Positions 5,353-58,584 are shown, counted from the first letter of the stretch. The stretch: 64,000 nt of DNA from an uncultured Eubacteriales bacterium (GCA_964505785.1 CAZDJZ010000011.1:5568-69567); one strand, 5' to 3'. Translations and numbers: made by a program. Notes: generated from the sequence alone by a model not told the origin.

Positions 5353-5363
5353 ACTTTTATATT

Positions 5364-5674
5364 AACCTTATTTATTCACGGGCCGAGATTGCGGCAGACG
5401 ACGACAATTTTTCATTCAATTACGTGCTGAGGCCTGAGAAGCAGGCCGCAAGGATCTTATGGTGCTTCGTTCATTGAGTCGGCACCGATTCAATGACGAC
5501 GCAGTACAATATCCTTACGTTGCTTCACTTCGCTCAGGACAACCCTGGCGGGTTGTTTTCGGACTAATAGTTCAGGATAATTTGATTTTGGAACCCGGGA
5601 ATAATATACTAACCTTGATTATTCATAAAAAATTGCGATGTTTTAGCAATCTCAGCCTGTGAATAACCCAGGCT
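5364..5674. mobile_element. candidate MITE-like unit bounded by inverted family-A ends, carrying a family-B hairpin (5424-5540)
   Basis: The left end is aaccttatttattcacgggccgagattgcggcagacg (5364-5400). The right end is tagcaatctcagcctgtgaataacccaggct (5644-5674). An extra A-tract variant copy lies at 5611-5640, head-to-head with the right end. Confidence 0.45.
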
Positions 5675-5681
5675 AAAAATT

Positions 5682-5856: not shown

Positions 5857-5894
5857 CGAATTTTGAAGTCCATATACTCTCTAATTTCAACTCT

Positions 5895-7394
5895 TCACTT
5901 TTCACTGTTTACTTTCAACATAAAGTCTTCCGCCAGCCGCAAATATTTCCTACACAACTCTCCCGCTTCCTCTTTCTGTTCCTTCCCTACATCTTCATCC
6001 CGGAGTTGGTAAGCTTGCACCAGGACTTGAACAACAGCCCGGTAGCATTGGTAAAAATCAATTAGCTTAAACAAATCCTGATCTTCCGATAGAGAAACAT
6101 ATTGATCCACCAGAACACCCGCAAGCTCATTACAATTGAAAAAATTTAAATCCATGGCTAAATAGGCTAAATCCGCAGCCACGTCGCAAGATGCGATTTT
6201 TTCTGAAAACTCGATAGCATCAAATAGGTATATTTTGTCGCTGGTGATAAAAATATTTTTTGACCGGACATCCCCATGCCCCCTTCGGACTCTTCCTTCA
6301 CGGTTCCTCTTTTTAAATAAGTCCTGGTGGCGGTTAAAGAAATTTTCCACACTTTGATGAATTCGCGCCAATCTCTCCCCTTCTCCTAACTGATCCTGAA
6401 TAAAATCTTTCAAAGCAAAAGCCGGTTCGAAATTGTCCCGGATGGCCTCTATCCTTCCGTATTCATCCCCTGCTTTATGCGATTGATTATGAAAATCATA
6501 CAAAATTCGGGCGATTTCCTGAATATGATCGTGAGTGACACTATTTTGTTCTAAGCGGTGATCCATCCGGTCTTTCTGGGGAAGCTCTTTCATTTTAACA
6601 CAGTAATCCAAAATCTCTCCTTCCCCTCCGAATTCGACCTTGCCGTCCCTGCGTACGACCGGTTCAACCCCCATATATATTTCCGGTGCAATGAGGGAAT
6701 TCAACATATTTTCGCGATGACAAAATCTTTTTCGTTTCTCCAAAGTTGAATAATCGACAAAACTGTATAAAACCGGTTTTTTTATTTTCCGCGCCCGGCT
6801 TCCGTTCAAAATGACCCAGCTCATATGTGTTTGAAATAAACGGCGGTCTTCCGTGAGTAAAGGATCGATGACGTCCTTATGCCCCTTCATGATCCGGATG
6901 GAATTGGCTGAATCCTGAACTTTTGCTTTCCATTTTCCTTCGTTTCGGGTGTCAATGGCAAAATCCGGGTCTTTAATATCCTCGAATTGCTTCTTCATCA
7001 TTTTGTATACTTTATAATCGGCTTCACTGGCGTCAGTCCCGGCTTGATAGCGGTCTTCTATCCTTCTTTTAACAATGTTCTCCGGGCAAACGACTTCGAC
7101 CAAAAAAAAGGATTCTCCGTGTTTCCGGGCCAGTTTTTCGGCCCGTTGCCGCAGGTCCCGTTTGAAAAAAGTCCCATCCAGAATTACAGATTTTCTCTGT
7201 TCAAGTATTTTCTCAGCCTTCTCCATCAGAACAGCATAAACACTCCGTTTATGCTGTTCTGAATAATCCTGATTTTTATCGATTTTCCTGCGCAGCTCAT
7301 CAGTGGATAATCTTTCCGCTCCCAGGTGACCAGCCAATTCTTTGGCCACAGAGGTCTTGCCGGTCCCCGGCAGACCTGACATGATTATGAGCAT
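5895..7394 (-). CDS. fusion protein: N-terminal P-loop kinase-like ATPase + C-terminal aminoglycoside-phosphotransferase-like (APH/ChoK fold) domain
   Basis: Walker A MSGLPGTGKTS at the N-terminus. C-terminal HGDVRSKNIFI...LFDAIEF resembles the HGDxxxxN...D catalytic and Mg loops of APH-type kinases. Confidence 0.8.
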   Translation of the reverse strand: MLIIMSGLPGTGKTSVAKELAGHLGAERLSTDELRRKIDKNQDYSEQHKRSVYAVLMEKAEKILEQRKSVILDGTFFKRDLRQRAEKLARKHGESFFLVEVVCPENIVKRRIEDRYQAGTDASEADYKVYKMMKKQFEDIKDPDFAIDTRNEGKWKAKVQDSANSIRIMKGHKDVIDPLLTEDRRLFQTHMSWVILNGSRARKIKKPVLYSFVDYSTLEKRKRFCHRENMLNSLIAPEIYMGVEPVVRRDGKVEFGGEGEILDYCVKMKELPQKDRMDHRLEQNSVTHDHIQEIARILYDFHNQSHKAGDEYGRIEAIRDNFEPAFALKDFIQDQLGEGERLARIHQSVENFFNRHQDLFKKRNREGRVRRGHGDVRSKNIFITSDKIYLFDAIEFSEKIASCDVAADLAYLAMDLNFFNCNELAGVLVDQYVSLSEDQDLFKLIDFYQCYRAVVQVLVQAYQLRDEDVGKEQKEEAGELCRKYLRLAEDFMLKVNSEK

Positions 7395-36640: not shown

Positions 36641-36674
36641 TCACTTTTCACTTTTCACTTTTCACTTTTCACTT
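36641..36674. repeat. 7-nt tandem tract (TCACTTT x ~5)
   Basis: tcacttttcacttttcacttttcacttttcactt, preceded by the family-B right arm cctcagaatgac. Confidence 0.9.
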
Positions 36675-36722
36675 AAAGATGTGTTACCATGAGTAAAGTC
36701 AAAATTCAGGAAGGAGGTTATC

Positions 36723-45586: not shown

Positions 45587-45627
45587 GAAACCTCTTTAGA
45601 GTAAAAAGTGAAAAGTTATCTTATTAA

Positions 45628-45651
45628 ATCAAAAATCAAAAATCAAAAAAA
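45628..45651. repeat. 8-nt tandem tract (ATCAAAAA x3)
   Basis: aatcaaaaatcaaaaatcaaaaaa. The reverse-complement version occurs at 52775-52801. Confidence 0.85.
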
Positions 45652-52774: not shown

Positions 52775-52801
52775 GATTTTTTGATTTTTGATTTTTGATT
52801 T
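52775..52801. repeat. 8-nt tandem tract (TTTTTGAT x3)
   Basis: gattttttgatttttgatttttgattt, the reverse complement of the tract at 45628-45651. Confidence 0.85.
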
Positions 52802-52865
52802 AATAAAATAACATCTTGCTTTATACTTTTCACTTTTACTCCACGAAGAAAAGGAGGTATGTATT

Positions 52866-54035: not shown

Positions 54036-54065
54036 ATCGCAATTTTTTTAGGAATAATTCAGGCT
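54036..54065 (-). repeat. family-A repeat, A-tract variant
   Basis: atcgcaatttttttaggaataattcaggct. Confidence 0.65.
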
Positions 54066-54094
54066 GATAATCAAGGCTAATCAATGGGCCCGAT

Positions 54095-55615
54095 TTAATG
54101 ACGGTGGATGTCCCGGTGCAGAATTTCACGGATTTCTTCCGGCTTTTTCAAGGAAGAAAAATCCACATGTTCCTGGTTTAGATTATTTATCATATATTCA
54201 ATCACACCCGGCGGAAAGATATTGTCCCGTTCATACAGCTGCCGCTTCTTTTCCAAAACGACAGCGGATTCAGCACAGCTTGCAGGTAAAGATTTGAATT
54301 TTTTTCTTTTATCATCCGACCAGGTTGTCCCTTTAACATAAAGCTTTTCAGCCATGGCCGCTGCTTCATCATGCTGAAATCCCCAATCCGCCGCCATGGT
54401 GATTCCCGCCAGCAGCAAATGGACCATCGCGCTGCCATCCGGGCTGCGGAGTTCTACGGTTTTGCTGTCTTCCCATTCTTCCAGCCGGGTGGATTCTTGC
54501 GGATTGACTTTGCGTGCCAAGTCTTGCTTATCCGACCAGGCCAGCGGTATACGGATTAAGGCATCCCGGTTCAGCCCGCTCCAAAAAATCCGGGTGGGGG
54601 CTTCCTGATCCGGCACCAGGCGGAAATAGGACGAGGCGACAGTATTACCAAATGCGGTCAGGGAATCCGCATACTCGCATAAACCGCCGACCAGCCTTTC
54701 AGCTTCTTTAGAAAGGCGGCCGTCCGCCCGCCGCATAATATTTTTTCCATTCTTATTCAATTGCAGATGAAAATGATATCCGTTGCCGGCAATCCCGGTT
54801 TCCAGCTTCGGCGCAAAAGTAACAGAGCATCCATTCCGGTACGCGATATTCCGGATCAACCATCGTGCCACCACCAAAGCATCGGCCATTTCTTCAGCCG
54901 GGCGGGGAAGAAACTCAACCTCTAATTGCTCGGCTTGCTTTCCGTTTATTTCATCCATGTCTGATTCCAGTTTCTCAATATGGCCGACTTCACTATGCGC
55001 ATACTTGACCGCACTGGTGATCTGGGTGATATGCCTTAGGATCTCCTTTAAAATCCGTCCGCTTTTTATAAACGGAGAAGATTCATGATAACCTCGTTGG
55101 CTTTCCAGAGAAAACAGGGTTTTTTCCTTATCAAAAATAAGATAAAACTCCAACTCACCTAAAGCAAAAAGCTCCAGCCCCGTGTTTTGTTTGAACAGAA
55201 TGCAGGCATTATGCAGAATAGTGTCGGGAGCAAAGCGTGCCCGCTCCCCGTCTTTGGTAAAATAGCGGCAGATGAAATTCAAGCTTTTTTCATCAAAGGG
55301 ATTCAAAAAAGCGGATTTATAGTCGGGCACAACATAAAGATCGGAAAGCGATGATTCCACCATTCCCTTAAATAAGCTGGACCCGTCCACTCTCTCTCCC
55401 TGGGTCAAAATGACCTCAGCCCGGCGTCTGTCCGGGACAGGGAGGTTCAATTCCTTTAACCGCCCATCCAGAGCAATGTAGTGGAAGGTGATGCGTTCGA
55501 TTTGTTTTTCTTCGATGATTTCCAATAAATCCGACCGCTGAAACTCATTTGGATATTTATTCAAAAGTTGAGACAGCGGATTTGTTAATGCGTATGAAAA
55601 TTGAGACGTAGTCAT
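54095..55615 (-). CDS. glutamine synthetase family protein (glutamate--amine ligase-like, substrate unknown)
   Basis: 506 aa. N-terminal beta-grasp-like domain and a catalytic core with SVTFAPKLETGIAGNGYHFHLQL (compare GS ...GSGMHxHxSL). Confidence 0.75.
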   Translation of the reverse strand: MTTSQFSYALTNPLSQLLNKYPNEFQRSDLLEIIEEKQIERITFHYIALDGRLKELNLPVPDRRRAEVILTQGERVDGSSLFKGMVESSLSDLYVVPDYKSAFLNPFDEKSLNFICRYFTKDGERARFAPDTILHNACILFKQNTGLELFALGELEFYLIFDKEKTLFSLESQRGYHESSPFIKSGRILKEILRHITQITSAVKYAHSEVGHIEKLESDMDEINGKQAEQLEVEFLPRPAEEMADALVVARWLIRNIAYRNGCSVTFAPKLETGIAGNGYHFHLQLNKNGKNIMRRADGRLSKEAERLVGGLCEYADSLTAFGNTVASSYFRLVPDQEAPTRIFWSGLNRDALIRIPLAWSDKQDLARKVNPQESTRLEEWEDSKTVELRSPDGSAMVHLLLAGITMAADWGFQHDEAAAMAEKLYVKGTTWSDDKRKKFKSLPASCAESAVVLEKKRQLYERDNIFPPGVIEYMINNLNQEHVDFSSLKKPEEIREILHRDIHRH

Positions 55616-55724: not shown

Positions 55725-56825
55725 TCAGGAAAGATCCGATAAGGCCTTCTCCAGCCGCTTCAATCCCTCACCCAGCTCATCCGCATCCGCGCCGAATCCA
55801 ATCCGGAAATAACGGGGATTCATTTCAAAACACCGGCCCGGAACGATAAAAGTCCTGTGCTTTTCTGCCGCCATGCGGAAAAACTCTTCCGGATCAATGC
55901 CAATTTCCTGTTTAAGCCGGGGAAAACAGACTACCCCAGCTTCAGGTGGAATCCACTCTAGAGCGGATTGCCGCTCCATCCACTCTTTTAGTACAGCCAG
56001 GTTGGTTTGAATGCGCTGCCGTGCTCTCTCCAGATAGAATTCCTTGTCCTCCAGCACCCTGGCTGTAATCACTTCGCTTAGAGCATTATTGGAAATACTG
56101 ACCTGCTCCCTGACAGCAACACAGTGATCAATCCAGCTGCGGTTCCGGGATGCCATCCATCCTGTGCGGATTCCGGGAAGGCCGTAACATTTCGACATGC
56201 TGGTGATACTGACGGCATTTTCACTTAATACGGCTGCCGGCGGAAGCATGGCCTCGCTCGGGGCCAGGAATTGGTAGGTTTCATCGCTTAATAATGGGAT
56301 TCCATGATTTTCAGCCATGGCGATGATATTATCCAGGTCATCGCGGCTTATCATCGACCCCGTCGGATTATTGGGATGCGTGATGCTGATCAACTTTGTA
56401 TCCGGACGGATCATCTTTTCCAGCTCATCCAAATCAGGCCGGAATTTGTTTTCATAACGCAGCGTGAACAGGGAAACATCACAGCCCAAAGACCGGGGCA
56501 CCTCATACAAAGACGGATAATTCGGATGTTCAATGATTACATGTTCACCAGGATTCACCAGAGCCGACACCACAGCAAAATTCGCTTCACTTGCACCAGT
56601 GGTCACCAGAATATTATCCGCGTTCAACCCTTCATACTGTCCGGCTATAATGTTTCTCAGCTCCGGCTTTCCCCGGTGATAACCATAGCGGAGCCGGACA
56701 TCATTTAAAGCGACCGGGACCGCGCCCAGGGGAAGAGTTTTGACTGCGCTCTCCCCTTCATCATAATCAATTTCATACTGATATGTATCGAACCAGATTT
56801 CCAATTCCATTCGTTTATACCACAT
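55725..56825 (-). CDS. class I/II PLP-dependent aminotransferase (paralogue of 25394-26521)
   Basis: SMSKCYGLPGIRTGW PLP-lysine motif. The start is moved to the ATG at 56825 (RBS AAGGAGA 6 nt upstream), because the track N-terminus MRSFASLRMT... is translated family-B repeat. Confidence 0.85.
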   Translation of the reverse strand: MWYKRMELEIWFDTYQYEIDYDEGESAVKTLPLGAVPVALNDVRLRYGYHRGKPELRNIIAGQYEGLNADNILVTTGASEANFAVVSALVNPGEHVIIEHPNYPSLYEVPRSLGCDVSLFTLRYENKFRPDLDELEKMIRPDTKLISITHPNNPTGSMISRDDLDNIIAMAENHGIPLLSDETYQFLAPSEAMLPPAAVLSENAVSITSMSKCYGLPGIRTGWMASRNRSWIDHCVAVREQVSISNNALSEVITARVLEDKEFYLERARQRIQTNLAVLKEWMERQSALEWIPPEAGVVCFPRLKQEIGIDPEEFFRMAAEKHRTFIVPGRCFEMNPRYFRIGFGADADELGEGLKRLEKALSDLS

Positions 56826-56853
56826 TCCGTTTCTCCTTATTGAAACACATAAT

Positions 56854-56890
56854 GTCATCCTGAGCGAAGCGAAGGATCTCAAACTGCCTC
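56854..56890. repeat. family-B left-arm fragment
   Basis: gtcatcctgagcgaagcgaaggatctcaaactgcctcg. Confidence 0.6.
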
Positions 56891-56902
56891 GTTATAAAAA
56901 TT

Positions 56903-56962
56903 GTAAAGAGTGAAGAGTAAAGAGAAAAAATCAGAGAAAAGTGAGAAGTAAAAAGTGAAAAG
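56903..56962. repeat. purine-rich degenerate tract (GTAAAGAG / GTGAAGAG / AAAGTGA units)
   Basis: gtaaagagtgaagagtaaagagaaaaaatcagagaaaagtgagaagtaaaaagtgaaaag. Related words occur at 33937-33960, 34921-34945, 45598-45617 and 5891-5915. Confidence 0.8.
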
Positions 56963-56992
56963 TTATCCTATTAAATTAAAATGACTTAATGC

Positions 56993-57609
56993 ACCTGAAT
57001 TATTCACAAGCCGAGATTGCGGCAAATGCGAGGCGCAGAGATTTCAAAAAATAATCCTCGAAATAAAACAGATTGAACAATGAGGAAATGAGGAGTATGA
57101 ATAGAAATAGATGGACATATACAGCCCTGGTCTGGTTTTTTTTGAAGTCACAGGGGATTGATTATATGATACTTTATAGACGGTGAAAATGAATCCACAT
57201 GCTAAATACTACCTAACCTGGATTATTCACGGGCCGAGATTGCCGCAGACGACGGCAATACGTTAATTTATTGTCGTTCTGAGGAGCATAGCGACAAAGG
57301 ATCTTAGACGGCGCTTGCACGAGAAGACGATGACGCTTCATTCAGCGAAAAAGTCTAAGATCCTCACGGCCTGCCGGCGCAGGCCTCAGGACGACATTGA
57401 TTCAATCAAGGTCGTCACTTCACTGCGACGAGCTGCAAACCGGAAGATGCGGTGAGATTCGGCTCGCCCGAAGGGGTGAAAAATTGCGGTTATAATTTAA
57501 GGAGGCAAATGAAAAACTTTCAATTTGAACTTTTAATTAAAATCATGTTAATCGCTGATAAAAAAGTTTTTGCAAAAACATCGCAATTTTTTTATGAATA
57601 ATTCAGGCT
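56993..57609. mobile_element. composite repeat region bounded by inverted family-A copies (56993 + / 57579 -), with a nested family-A copy (57215 +) and a full family-B hairpin (57273-57395)
   Basis: The left end is acctgaattattcacaagccgagattgcggcaaa. The inner copy is aacctggattattcacgggccgagattgccgcagac. The right end is catcgcaatttttttatgaataattcaggct. No ORF of 60 aa or more is present. Confidence 0.4.
57273..57395. repeat. family-B long-hairpin element (best copy)
   Basis: Outer stem GTCGTTCTGAGG / CCTCAGGACGAC (11 of 12 bp plus one G-U). Inner stem AGGATCTTAGAC / GTCTAAGATCCT (12 of 12 bp). Confidence 0.8.
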
Positions 57610-57624
57610 AAAAAGGAGTGACGG

Positions 57625-58584
57625 ATGACTGATATTTATAATTTAAATCAAATCAAGGAAGCCCTCAAGGATTTCGATCCTCTGCCGGAGATTGAAGCCG
57701 GATTCCAAGCCTATTCCCGCGGCGAAGCTGTGATTCCGCCGGTCGGTGAGATGCTGTTTGACAATCCCCCCGGAGAAATGCATATCAAGTACGGATATAT
57801 TAAGAACCAAGACTTCGCGGTTATTAAAATCGCCGGGGGCTTTTATGAAAATATAAAAGCAGGCCTTCCCTCAACAGACGGATTGATGCTTCTGTTCAGC
57901 CAGCGGAACGGTAAACTGGAGGCCGTCCTTTTGGATAAGGGCCACCTCACAAACATCCGGACGGCTGCAGCGGGGGCTGTGGCTGCAAAATATCTGGCCC
58001 CAAAAAACATAAAAGCAATCGGCGTCCTGGGAGCCGGTGTCCAAGGCCGGATGCAAGCTGAAGCTCTTAAATCCCTCACCGCCTGCCGGGATATATGGAT
58101 TTGGGGAGTGGATAAAGGAGAGACCGCCCTCTATAAGAGGGACATGGAAGCGGCGAGCTTTAATGTGCACACCACTCTTGATCCTGAAAAAGTCGCGGCT
58201 CATTCCAATTTGATTATAACTGCAACCCCGTCAAAAAAACCGCTGCTTGAATCCGAATGGATCAAACCGGGAACCCATATTACCGCCATGGGTTCGGATA
58301 CCCCGGAAAAACGAGAGCTTGATTCCGGAATTCTGACCTCGGCCGATATTGTGGCAGCCGACAGCATCAGTCAAAGCCGTTTCCGCGGTGAAATCTTTCA
58401 TGCGGTAAAGGCCGGTGCCCTTCAGGAAAATAAGGTTCGCGAATTGGGTCATGTCATAAGCGATCCTGCGCTGCAGCGTCAAAACGATGATCAAATTTCC
58501 ATCGCCGATCTCACAGGAGTGGCGGTCCAGGATATCAAAATCGCAGCAGCTGTTTACAGAAAGCTGAAGGCTTTATTATTTTGA
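57625..58584 (+). CDS. ornithine cyclodeaminase / mu-crystallin family protein
   Basis: 319 aa. Rossmann IGVLGAGVQG and family-typical IRTAAAGAVAAKYLA. RBS aaaggag. Confidence 0.88.
   Translation: MTDIYNLNQIKEALKDFDPLPEIEAGFQAYSRGEAVIPPVGEMLFDNPPGEMHIKYGYIKNQDFAVIKIAGGFYENIKAGLPSTDGLMLLFSQRNGKLEAVLLDKGHLTNIRTAAAGAVAAKYLAPKNIKAIGVLGAGVQGRMQAEALKSLTACRDIWIWGVDKGETALYKRDMEAASFNVHTTLDPEKVAAHSNLIITATPSKKPLLESEWIKPGTHITAMGSDTPEKRELDSGILTSADIVAADSISQSRFRGEIFHAVKAGALQENKVRELGHVISDPALQRQNDDQISIADLTGVAVQDIKIAAAVYRKLKALLF

Follow-up and report, generated by a model that had tools for sequence, protein, structure and literature searches.

The spacer that separates a class I/II aminotransferase gene (PF00155, - strand) from a divergent gene of the ornithine cyclodeaminase/mu-crystallin family (PF02423, + strand, start 57625) is very probably an ordinary divergent promoter region that has been stretched by repeated insertions of non-autonomous mobile repeats. 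It lies in a 64,000-nucleotide stretch of DNA (the window, C11:5568-69567) taken from the 3.13-Mb draft genome of an uncultured Aminicenantes-like bacterium, with 50 contigs, 46.8% G+C and 89.8% completeness. The most likely extent of the spacer is 56826-57624 (799 bp), because the ATG at 56825, the likely start of the aminotransferase gene, has AAGGAG 7 nt upstream; the open reading frame can be extended to a TTG at 56882. An earlier note on this DNA had recognized the long gap but set its start at 56883 and its length at 742 bp, and these bounds probably do not hold. The features of the spacer are listed below, with positions counted from the first letter of the window.

56826-56852, - strand: aminotransferase 5' leader with Shine-Dalgarno AAGGAG (start ATG 56825)
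56853-56892, + strand: solo family-B arm, TGTCATCCTGAGCGAAGCGAAGGATCTCAAACTGCCTCGT (82-87 BLAST matches)
56893-56992, + strand: dispersed purine-rich module, (AGTRAAR)n followed by AGTTATCYTATTAAATYAAAA (113 BLAST matches)
56994-57040, + strand: 47-bp truncated left end of a second IS1380-type MITE, scored as L-type
57041-57212, no strand assigned: single-copy core with candidate promoter hexamers on both strands and a 29-codon ORF (57097-57186)
57213-57216, no strand assigned: CTAA target-site duplication, left copy
57217-57607, + strand: complete IS1380-type MITE of 391 bp, left to right, of a composite subfamily with a nested family-B element (recognized by its end pair and by copies 89-93% identical)
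57273-57395, no strand assigned: nested family-B palindromic element of 123 bp, GTCGTTCTGAGG...CCTCAGGACGAC, inside the MITE
57509-57601, + strand: 30-codon mini-ORF in the AT-rich right module of the MITE (AAGGAGG at 57498-57504)
57608-57611, no strand assigned: CTAA target-site duplication, right copy
57612-57624, + strand: cyclodeaminase Shine-Dalgarno AAAGGAG and spacing (gene start 57625)

A BLAST search of the host genome with 56821-57640 returned 544 matches, and the 20-nt bins of this interval occur in about 26-141 copies, only 57041-57200 being single. Repeat pile-ups of this kind are typical for the host genome, because a family-A or family-B motif is present in 128 of its 237 spacers of at least 400 bp (54%), with gene positions taken from crude ORF calls. 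The repeat modules that the earlier note had described are thus present far beyond chance and at the places it gave: the family-B left arm and the full family-B hairpin are real, the purine-rich tract is the dispersed module, a 35-36-nt block is held in common with the region at 45600 (94% identity), and the plus-strand family-A copy near 56993 is the truncated MITE left end that begins at 56994. The unique stretch was likewise found to be single-copy at 57041-57212. The plus-strand family-A copy placed at 57215 and the minus-strand copy at 57579 are both real (ends at 57217 and 57595), but they are the two ends of one 391-bp element rather than separate modules, and the cgagctgcaaacc word, which is present, belongs to the interior of that element and is not a module of its own. 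That note considered a small RNA, a leader peptide or only repeat debris, and of these three the last is the best fit, but the repeats are organized, comprising an intact MITE with its duplication, a nested element and remnants.

The central component is the element at 57217-57607, a member of the family designated A. Its 13-bp terminal inverted repeats, CCTGGATTATTCA (57217-57229) and TGAATAATTCAGG (57595-57607), pair with each other, and across 46 copies the terminal stem comprises 527 Watson-Crick and 46 G-T pairs among 598. A terminal-motif scan of the host genome scored 147 ends as left-type, with GGGCCGAGATTGCCGCAG after CCTGRATTATTCAC, and 107 as right-type (...ATTGCAAAAACATCGCAATTTTTTTATGAATAATTCAGG); they sit on most contigs. 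Pairing of these ends defined a canonical form of 253 bp, represented by approximately 30 complete copies of 250-255 bp, with size variants of 193, ~336 and 391 bp beside it; at least five copies are of the 391-392-bp form, namely 57217-57607 and four others that are 89-93% identical to it. The consensus of family A alone accounts for 26.5 kb, or ~0.85% of the host genome.

The flanks of these copies show a 4-bp target duplication. In 24 of the 48 complete copies the YTAR tetranucleotides on the two sides are identical, the first flank base agrees in 38 of 48 where 20.8 would be expected, and flanks match as direct repeats only in 18 copies against 2 that match as reverse complements only. The copy at 57217-57607 is flanked by a perfect CTAA/CTAA duplication. 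Elements of this family are thus shorter than 600 bp, have terminal inverted repeats and a target duplication, lack a transposase gene and occupy many dispersed sites, which are the characteristics of a MITE; inside the 253-391-bp elements there is no ORF other than a 30-codon frame, which does not look like coding sequence. Family A also extends beyond the host genome, with many copies in genomes of the same genus and taxonomic family. Both other genomes of the same genus carry many copies, with 20-21 scored matches each at 83-89% identity, drawn from 167 and 363 first-look candidates, and a subfamily of 254-255 bp that is ~71% identical is found in another genus (genome G008).

Further traces of family A are present elsewhere in the window. 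A right-type end at 54036-54070 is 91% identical to 57580-57614, has no matching left end nearby, and adjoins, on the downstream side, the stop codon of a glutamine synthetase-like gene (54095-55615, - strand). A cluster of family-A ends at 5356-5680 consists of a left-type end at 5366 (+), a right-type end at 5613 (+) and a left-type end at 5660 (-). One right/left pair in it spans a minimal 60 bp (C11:11180-11239) and is suggestive of an extreme internal deletion derivative of the MITE.

Comparison with related genomes associates these ends with a known class of insertion sequence. In a genome of the same order (G033), locus L153 carries a 1620-bp element with an intact 456-aa frame that matches PF13701, the IS1380-family transposase domain; CCTGGATTATTCATAAA is found at both of its ends and TTAA on either flank. 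The MITE right end, CCTGAATTATTCATAAAAAAATTGC, matches the left end of this element at 21 of the first 23 positions. An element of ~1.63 kb at locus L140, from a genome of the same family (G007), has two transposase ORF pieces that match NF033539 (IS1380 family) and PF13701 and is flanked by CTAG and CTAA. Ends similar to those of the MITE were found on L140 and also on L152 and L161. In their ends and in their duplication the L153 and L140 elements match the MITE, which by this sequence comparison is a derivative of an IS1380-family insertion sequence. The L140 transposase (L140:1066-2400, G007:C26) has one in-frame TAG between its 204-aa and 232-aa pieces; either the gene is a pseudogene or the TAG is read through.

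Within the host genome itself PF13701 had no match, and this is a weak negative for a genome that is 89.8% complete and in 50 contigs, because insertion sequences are often missing from draft bins. Pairs of family-A ends lying 0.8-4.5 kb apart in the host genome enclose ordinary genes and no transposase. Given both of these results, the autonomous partner of the MITE is absent from, or unassembled in, the host draft. The 4-bp YTAR duplication had at first suggested IS5 as the source, and this candidate was rejected when the ends failed to turn up on any IS5-type element examined: the only DDE_Tnp_1 (PF01609) gene of the host genome, C11:90433-92049, is without matching ends, as are the IS5-like loci in relatives that gave the strongest PF01609 matches (L123-L129). 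One of these, L124, has a single small palindromic A-type motif that does not bracket the transposase gene. The host PF01609 gene is situated ~21 kb past the end of the window, and its open frame of 539 aa runs into the end of the contig.

The second repeat family, B, contributes both to the interior of the MITE and to the left part of the spacer. Relative to the 253-bp consensus, the 391-bp form has ~30 internal nt replaced by ~170 nt, which is not a clean insertion, and the replacement stretch includes the family-B element at 57273-57395. The composite of MITE and family B spread after this nesting event, because it occupies five unrelated sites, three of them with perfect duplications. Family B (TGTCATCCTGAG...CTCAGGATGACA) is represented by 337 arm motifs in the host genome, 60 of which form 30 simple pairs of 95-160 bp. 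A target duplication for family B was considered and rejected; a 3-nt identity was seen in 7 of the 30 pairs, and these are apparently mostly copies of one composite. As a driver of family B, a RAYT was also considered and set aside, since the host genome has two Y1_Tnp genes and neither has a family-A or family-B motif within ~1.5 kb. These two genes, C9:37658-38371 and C1:94098-94820, are IS200/RAYT-like paralogues of 237-240 aa.

To the left of the core the repeats are less complete. The purine-rich module is elsewhere often joined to a family-B arm, as in the 84% identity of 56852-56981 to C34:8130-8257. The 47-bp MITE remnant is 89-93% identical (over 56993-57038) to the left ends of other copies, and has neither a YTAR flank nor a right end. 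The window has more copies of the (ACTTTTC)n / AGTGAAAAGT tract with the AAATCAAAAATCAAAAA tail, at 36643-36678, 45600-45650, 52777-52827 and 5890-5925.

From these observations we propose that an original promoter region of ~230 bp, made up of the unique core and two short leaders, would have been expanded to ~800 bp by insertions. An IS1380-type DDE transposase acting in trans would recognize the ends of the MITE (CCTGRATTATTCAY), and insertion would take place at a YTAR tetranucleotide that is duplicated in the process (CTAA here). In this spacer the insertion would have occurred directly upstream of the cyclodeaminase Shine-Dalgarno sequence, 13 nt before the start codon, and would have involved the 391-bp subfamily, whose composite form presumably spread once the family-B palindrome had been acquired. 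To the left of the core, the solo family-B arm, the purine-rich module and the 47-bp left-end remnant probably reflect older or partial insertions. Transcription of the cyclodeaminase gene would start from the core promoter, or from within the element, and proceed through the MITE; in that case the sense-strand fold of the element would give the mRNA a structured leader of ~400 nt. Copies whose right end faces a gene start would be better tolerated than those in the opposite orientation.

In the core at 57041-57212 a promoter scan identified promoter-like hexamers on the plus strand (57142-57170, TTGAAG-17-TATGAT) and on the minus strand (57189-57161, TTTTCA-17-TATAAT); that their number does not exceed that in shuffled sequence (5 against 2.3 +/- 1.6 expected) speaks against the account. 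Deletion of the MITE in silico, together with one CTAA, yields the empty-site sequence ...ACTACCTAAAAAGGAG... and brings the plus-strand hexamers to ~45 nt upstream of the cyclodeaminase Shine-Dalgarno sequence, a spacing that we infer to be an ordinary promoter arrangement. The core probably holds the original divergent promoters. Genome and metagenome collections contain no strain-level relative, the best cyclodeaminase matches being 72% identical in the genomes and 63% in the metagenomes, and yielded neither a filled nor an empty site from a near strain; the same-genus genomes, with cyclodeaminase proteins 60-72% identical, are too diverged to provide a homologous spacer. One of the two has only 154 nt of contig left upstream of the cyclodeaminase gene, and in the other the gene order differs.

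The alternatives to this account assign a function to one or another part of the spacer. The earlier note had raised the possibility of a small RNA, and the core, the only non-repeat sequence of the spacer, could encode it, or a cis-regulatory leader (riboswitch or attenuator) of a flanking amino acid metabolism gene; a weak stem in the core is followed by a T-run (57125-57148), and its 29-codon ORF is preceded by GAGGAG. We consider such a function extremely unlikely. The core gave no Rfam match at the gathering cut-off or at E <= 10 (for the spacer as a whole the best hit was M23 RNA, at E 0.64 with 19.7 bits against a cut-off of 41.2), its fold is not significant (z-scores of +1.0, +0.6 and +1.4), and it has no DNA similarity in 25 related genomes, which is part of the outcome that the earlier note had named as speaking against a function. 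In the same-genus genome G001 synteny is not kept and the cyclodeaminase gene comes after co-directional ORFs. The 29-codon ORF at 57097 is present as had been described and is an unconserved ORF in the unique core; its longer reading of 37 aa (57073-57186) matches no Pfam family. The leader peptide, the other genic option, would be the 30-codon ORF (MKNFQFELLIKIMLIADKKVFAKTSQFFYE) acting as a real small protein or as an upstream ORF that modulates the cyclodeaminase gene 24 nt downstream. The ORF, its AAGGAGG and the nearby TATAAT are all as the earlier note had reported, and only in the copy at 57509-57601 is the ATG preceded, at a distance of 5 nt, by a perfect AAGGAGG. The search of other copies that had been suggested there gave a divided answer, as the frame is kept in ~29 of 48 complete copies and frameshifted in ~19 of 48 (~40%); among the diverged copies some, such as C1:64789, C15:497 and C38:7097, retain the length. 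The mini-ORF is part of the MITE consensus, where it reads MKNFPFELSIKIMLIADKKEIAKTSQFFYE, and the mismatch rates at its three codon positions are flat at 0.117, 0.138 and 0.115 (83 copies), with no third-position excess. In the G008 sister subfamily the surrounding structure is kept while the ATG is absent and the frame shifted, and the Shine-Dalgarno sequence is present in only 1 of 60 copies, the one at 57217-57607, the consensus having TATAATATAAATGTGCAAATG at this place. No Pfam family matched the mini-ORF. Because of the flat codon positions, the frameshifts, the loss in G008 and the single Shine-Dalgarno sequence, the 30-codon ORF is by its pattern of variation not a conserved gene and appears to be an accidental open frame in the MITE; it is possible that this one copy is translated as an upstream ORF, and a genuine small protein or modulating upstream ORF is very unlikely.

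Two further readings give the MITE itself a role in expression of its neighbor, and both draw on its predicted structure and its placement. The predicted fold is three-way: beside the terminal stem there is a GC-rich hairpin on the left and, on the right, a module that is closed by AAAAAAATTGCGAT / ATCGCAATTTTTTT; its energy is -91.6 kcal/mol for the consensus (z -7.6) and -139 kcal/mol for the copy at 57217-57607 (z -7.2). The strand read from left to right has a fold 15.7 kcal/mol more stable than that of its complement, and is favored in 44 of 46 copies from two genera. Compensatory changes distinguish the subfamilies, for example at pair 131/231 (TA in 29 copies, GC in 13) and, as further two-sided changes between GC and AT, at pairs 16/110 and 42/82; these counts ignore phylogeny and can be inflated by founder effects. 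The right end lies 17 nt before the cyclodeaminase ATG, and throughout the host genome the start of an ORF of 80 aa or more is found no further than 60 nt from 36 of the 107 right ends and from 15 of the 147 left ends (Fisher p = 6e-6, from crude ORF calls), a frequency three to four times higher for right ends. It is possible, but doubtful, that the MITE has been co-opted for regulation, as a mobile cassette whose right module serves as a promoter or structured 5' leader and sets the expression of the gene at its right end, here the cyclodeaminase gene. The strand that folds, read left to right and towards the gene, would be the sense strand, a -10-like box is present in both subfamilies (TATAAT in the host genome, TAAAAT in G008), and strong outward promoters are carried by ISEcp1 and ISPme1 of the IS1380 family (PMC9330008). 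However, the internal TATAAT is without an acceptable -35 box, the terminal TTGCAA-17-TATGAA scores 8/12 with the final T missing, the promoter scan reported neither of them, and TTGCAA is missing in the G008 subfamily. Selection against a GC-rich left hairpin at a ribosome-binding site would account for the orientation bias just as well, and stop codons adjoin both ends equally often (25 against 26). Tolerance is the simplest reading of this bias, a GC-rich hairpin beside a ribosome-binding site being selected against; the bias is compatible with, but not specific for, a promoter-bearing MITE, and such a role is possible and putative. The compensatory sense-strand fold across genera, together with the preference of right ends for gene starts, could also indicate that these MITEs are mobile structured 5'-leader RNAs that set the stability or translation of the downstream mRNA; in the present spacer the new Shine-Dalgarno sequence would make the accidental frame an upstream ORF of the cyclodeaminase gene. 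This interpretation we regard as unlikely. An ordinary divergent promoter region stretched by mobile repeats remains the preferred explanation.

Several known systems provide a context for this explanation. IS1380-family elements (ISEcp1, ISPme1 and IS1247; NF033539, PF13701) and the MITE have like ends beginning with CC and a like 4-bp AT-rich duplication (YTAR / TTAA), whereas the MITE has no transposase, is 253-391 bp in length and has an unrelated interior. The Correia elements of Neisseria (CREE/NEMIS), 100-400 bp in length, are MITEs that abound between genes, have inverted repeats at their ends and produce a short duplication that contains TA. They are often located just upstream of genes, are transcribed together with them and form long hairpins; for these elements promoter activity, binding of IHF and processing by RNase III have been demonstrated. 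The MITE described here resembles the Correia elements in abundance, intergenic location and inverted-repeat ends, but is unrelated in sequence and likely depends on a different transposase family. For family B the closest parallel is the REP/BIME/REPIN class, with which it has in common short GC-rich palindromic units, inverted pairs of ~110-126 bp, mosaics, many solo arms and the absence of a detectable target duplication. It differs in that the RAYT-like Y1 genes of the host are not flanked by it and in that TGTCATCCTGAG... is unrelated to enterobacterial or Pseudomonas REPs. In load, family A is similar to the MaeMITEs of Microcystis aeruginosa NIES-843 (~0.85% of the genome against ~1-2%), from which it differs in lineage and sequence; the MaeMITEs comprise several families of 150-435 bp with hundreds of copies, and no partner insertion sequences are assigned to them in the table of that paper (PMC2779907).

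The family is a further IS1380-type MITE, in an uncultured lineage. A literature search found no paper on MITEs in Aminicenantes, and for literature with both IS1380 and MITE neither term appeared in any title among the matches listed. The result connects IS1380-type transposases that use a YTAR/TTAA target with a repeat family abundant in an uncultured phylum, and documents one repeat family that became nested in another and then spread as a composite. For annotation, it means that long ORF-poor spacers with Shine-Dalgarno-preceded mini-ORFs, here and in relatives, should be masked as MITEs and not called as small genes or RNAs. The strand-specific predicted fold and the gene-facing orientation may further be taken as a hint that such elements shape 5' leaders.

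A separate observation concerns the cyclodeaminase gene downstream of the spacer. Its protein is 57-60% identical to those encoded by genes in Heimdall-/Promethearchaeota (Asgard) bins (L012, L013, L016-L019, L034 and L036), and these matches are as close as those in most Aminicenantes bins. At the level of protein similarity, this likeness points to horizontal transfer or to bin contamination.
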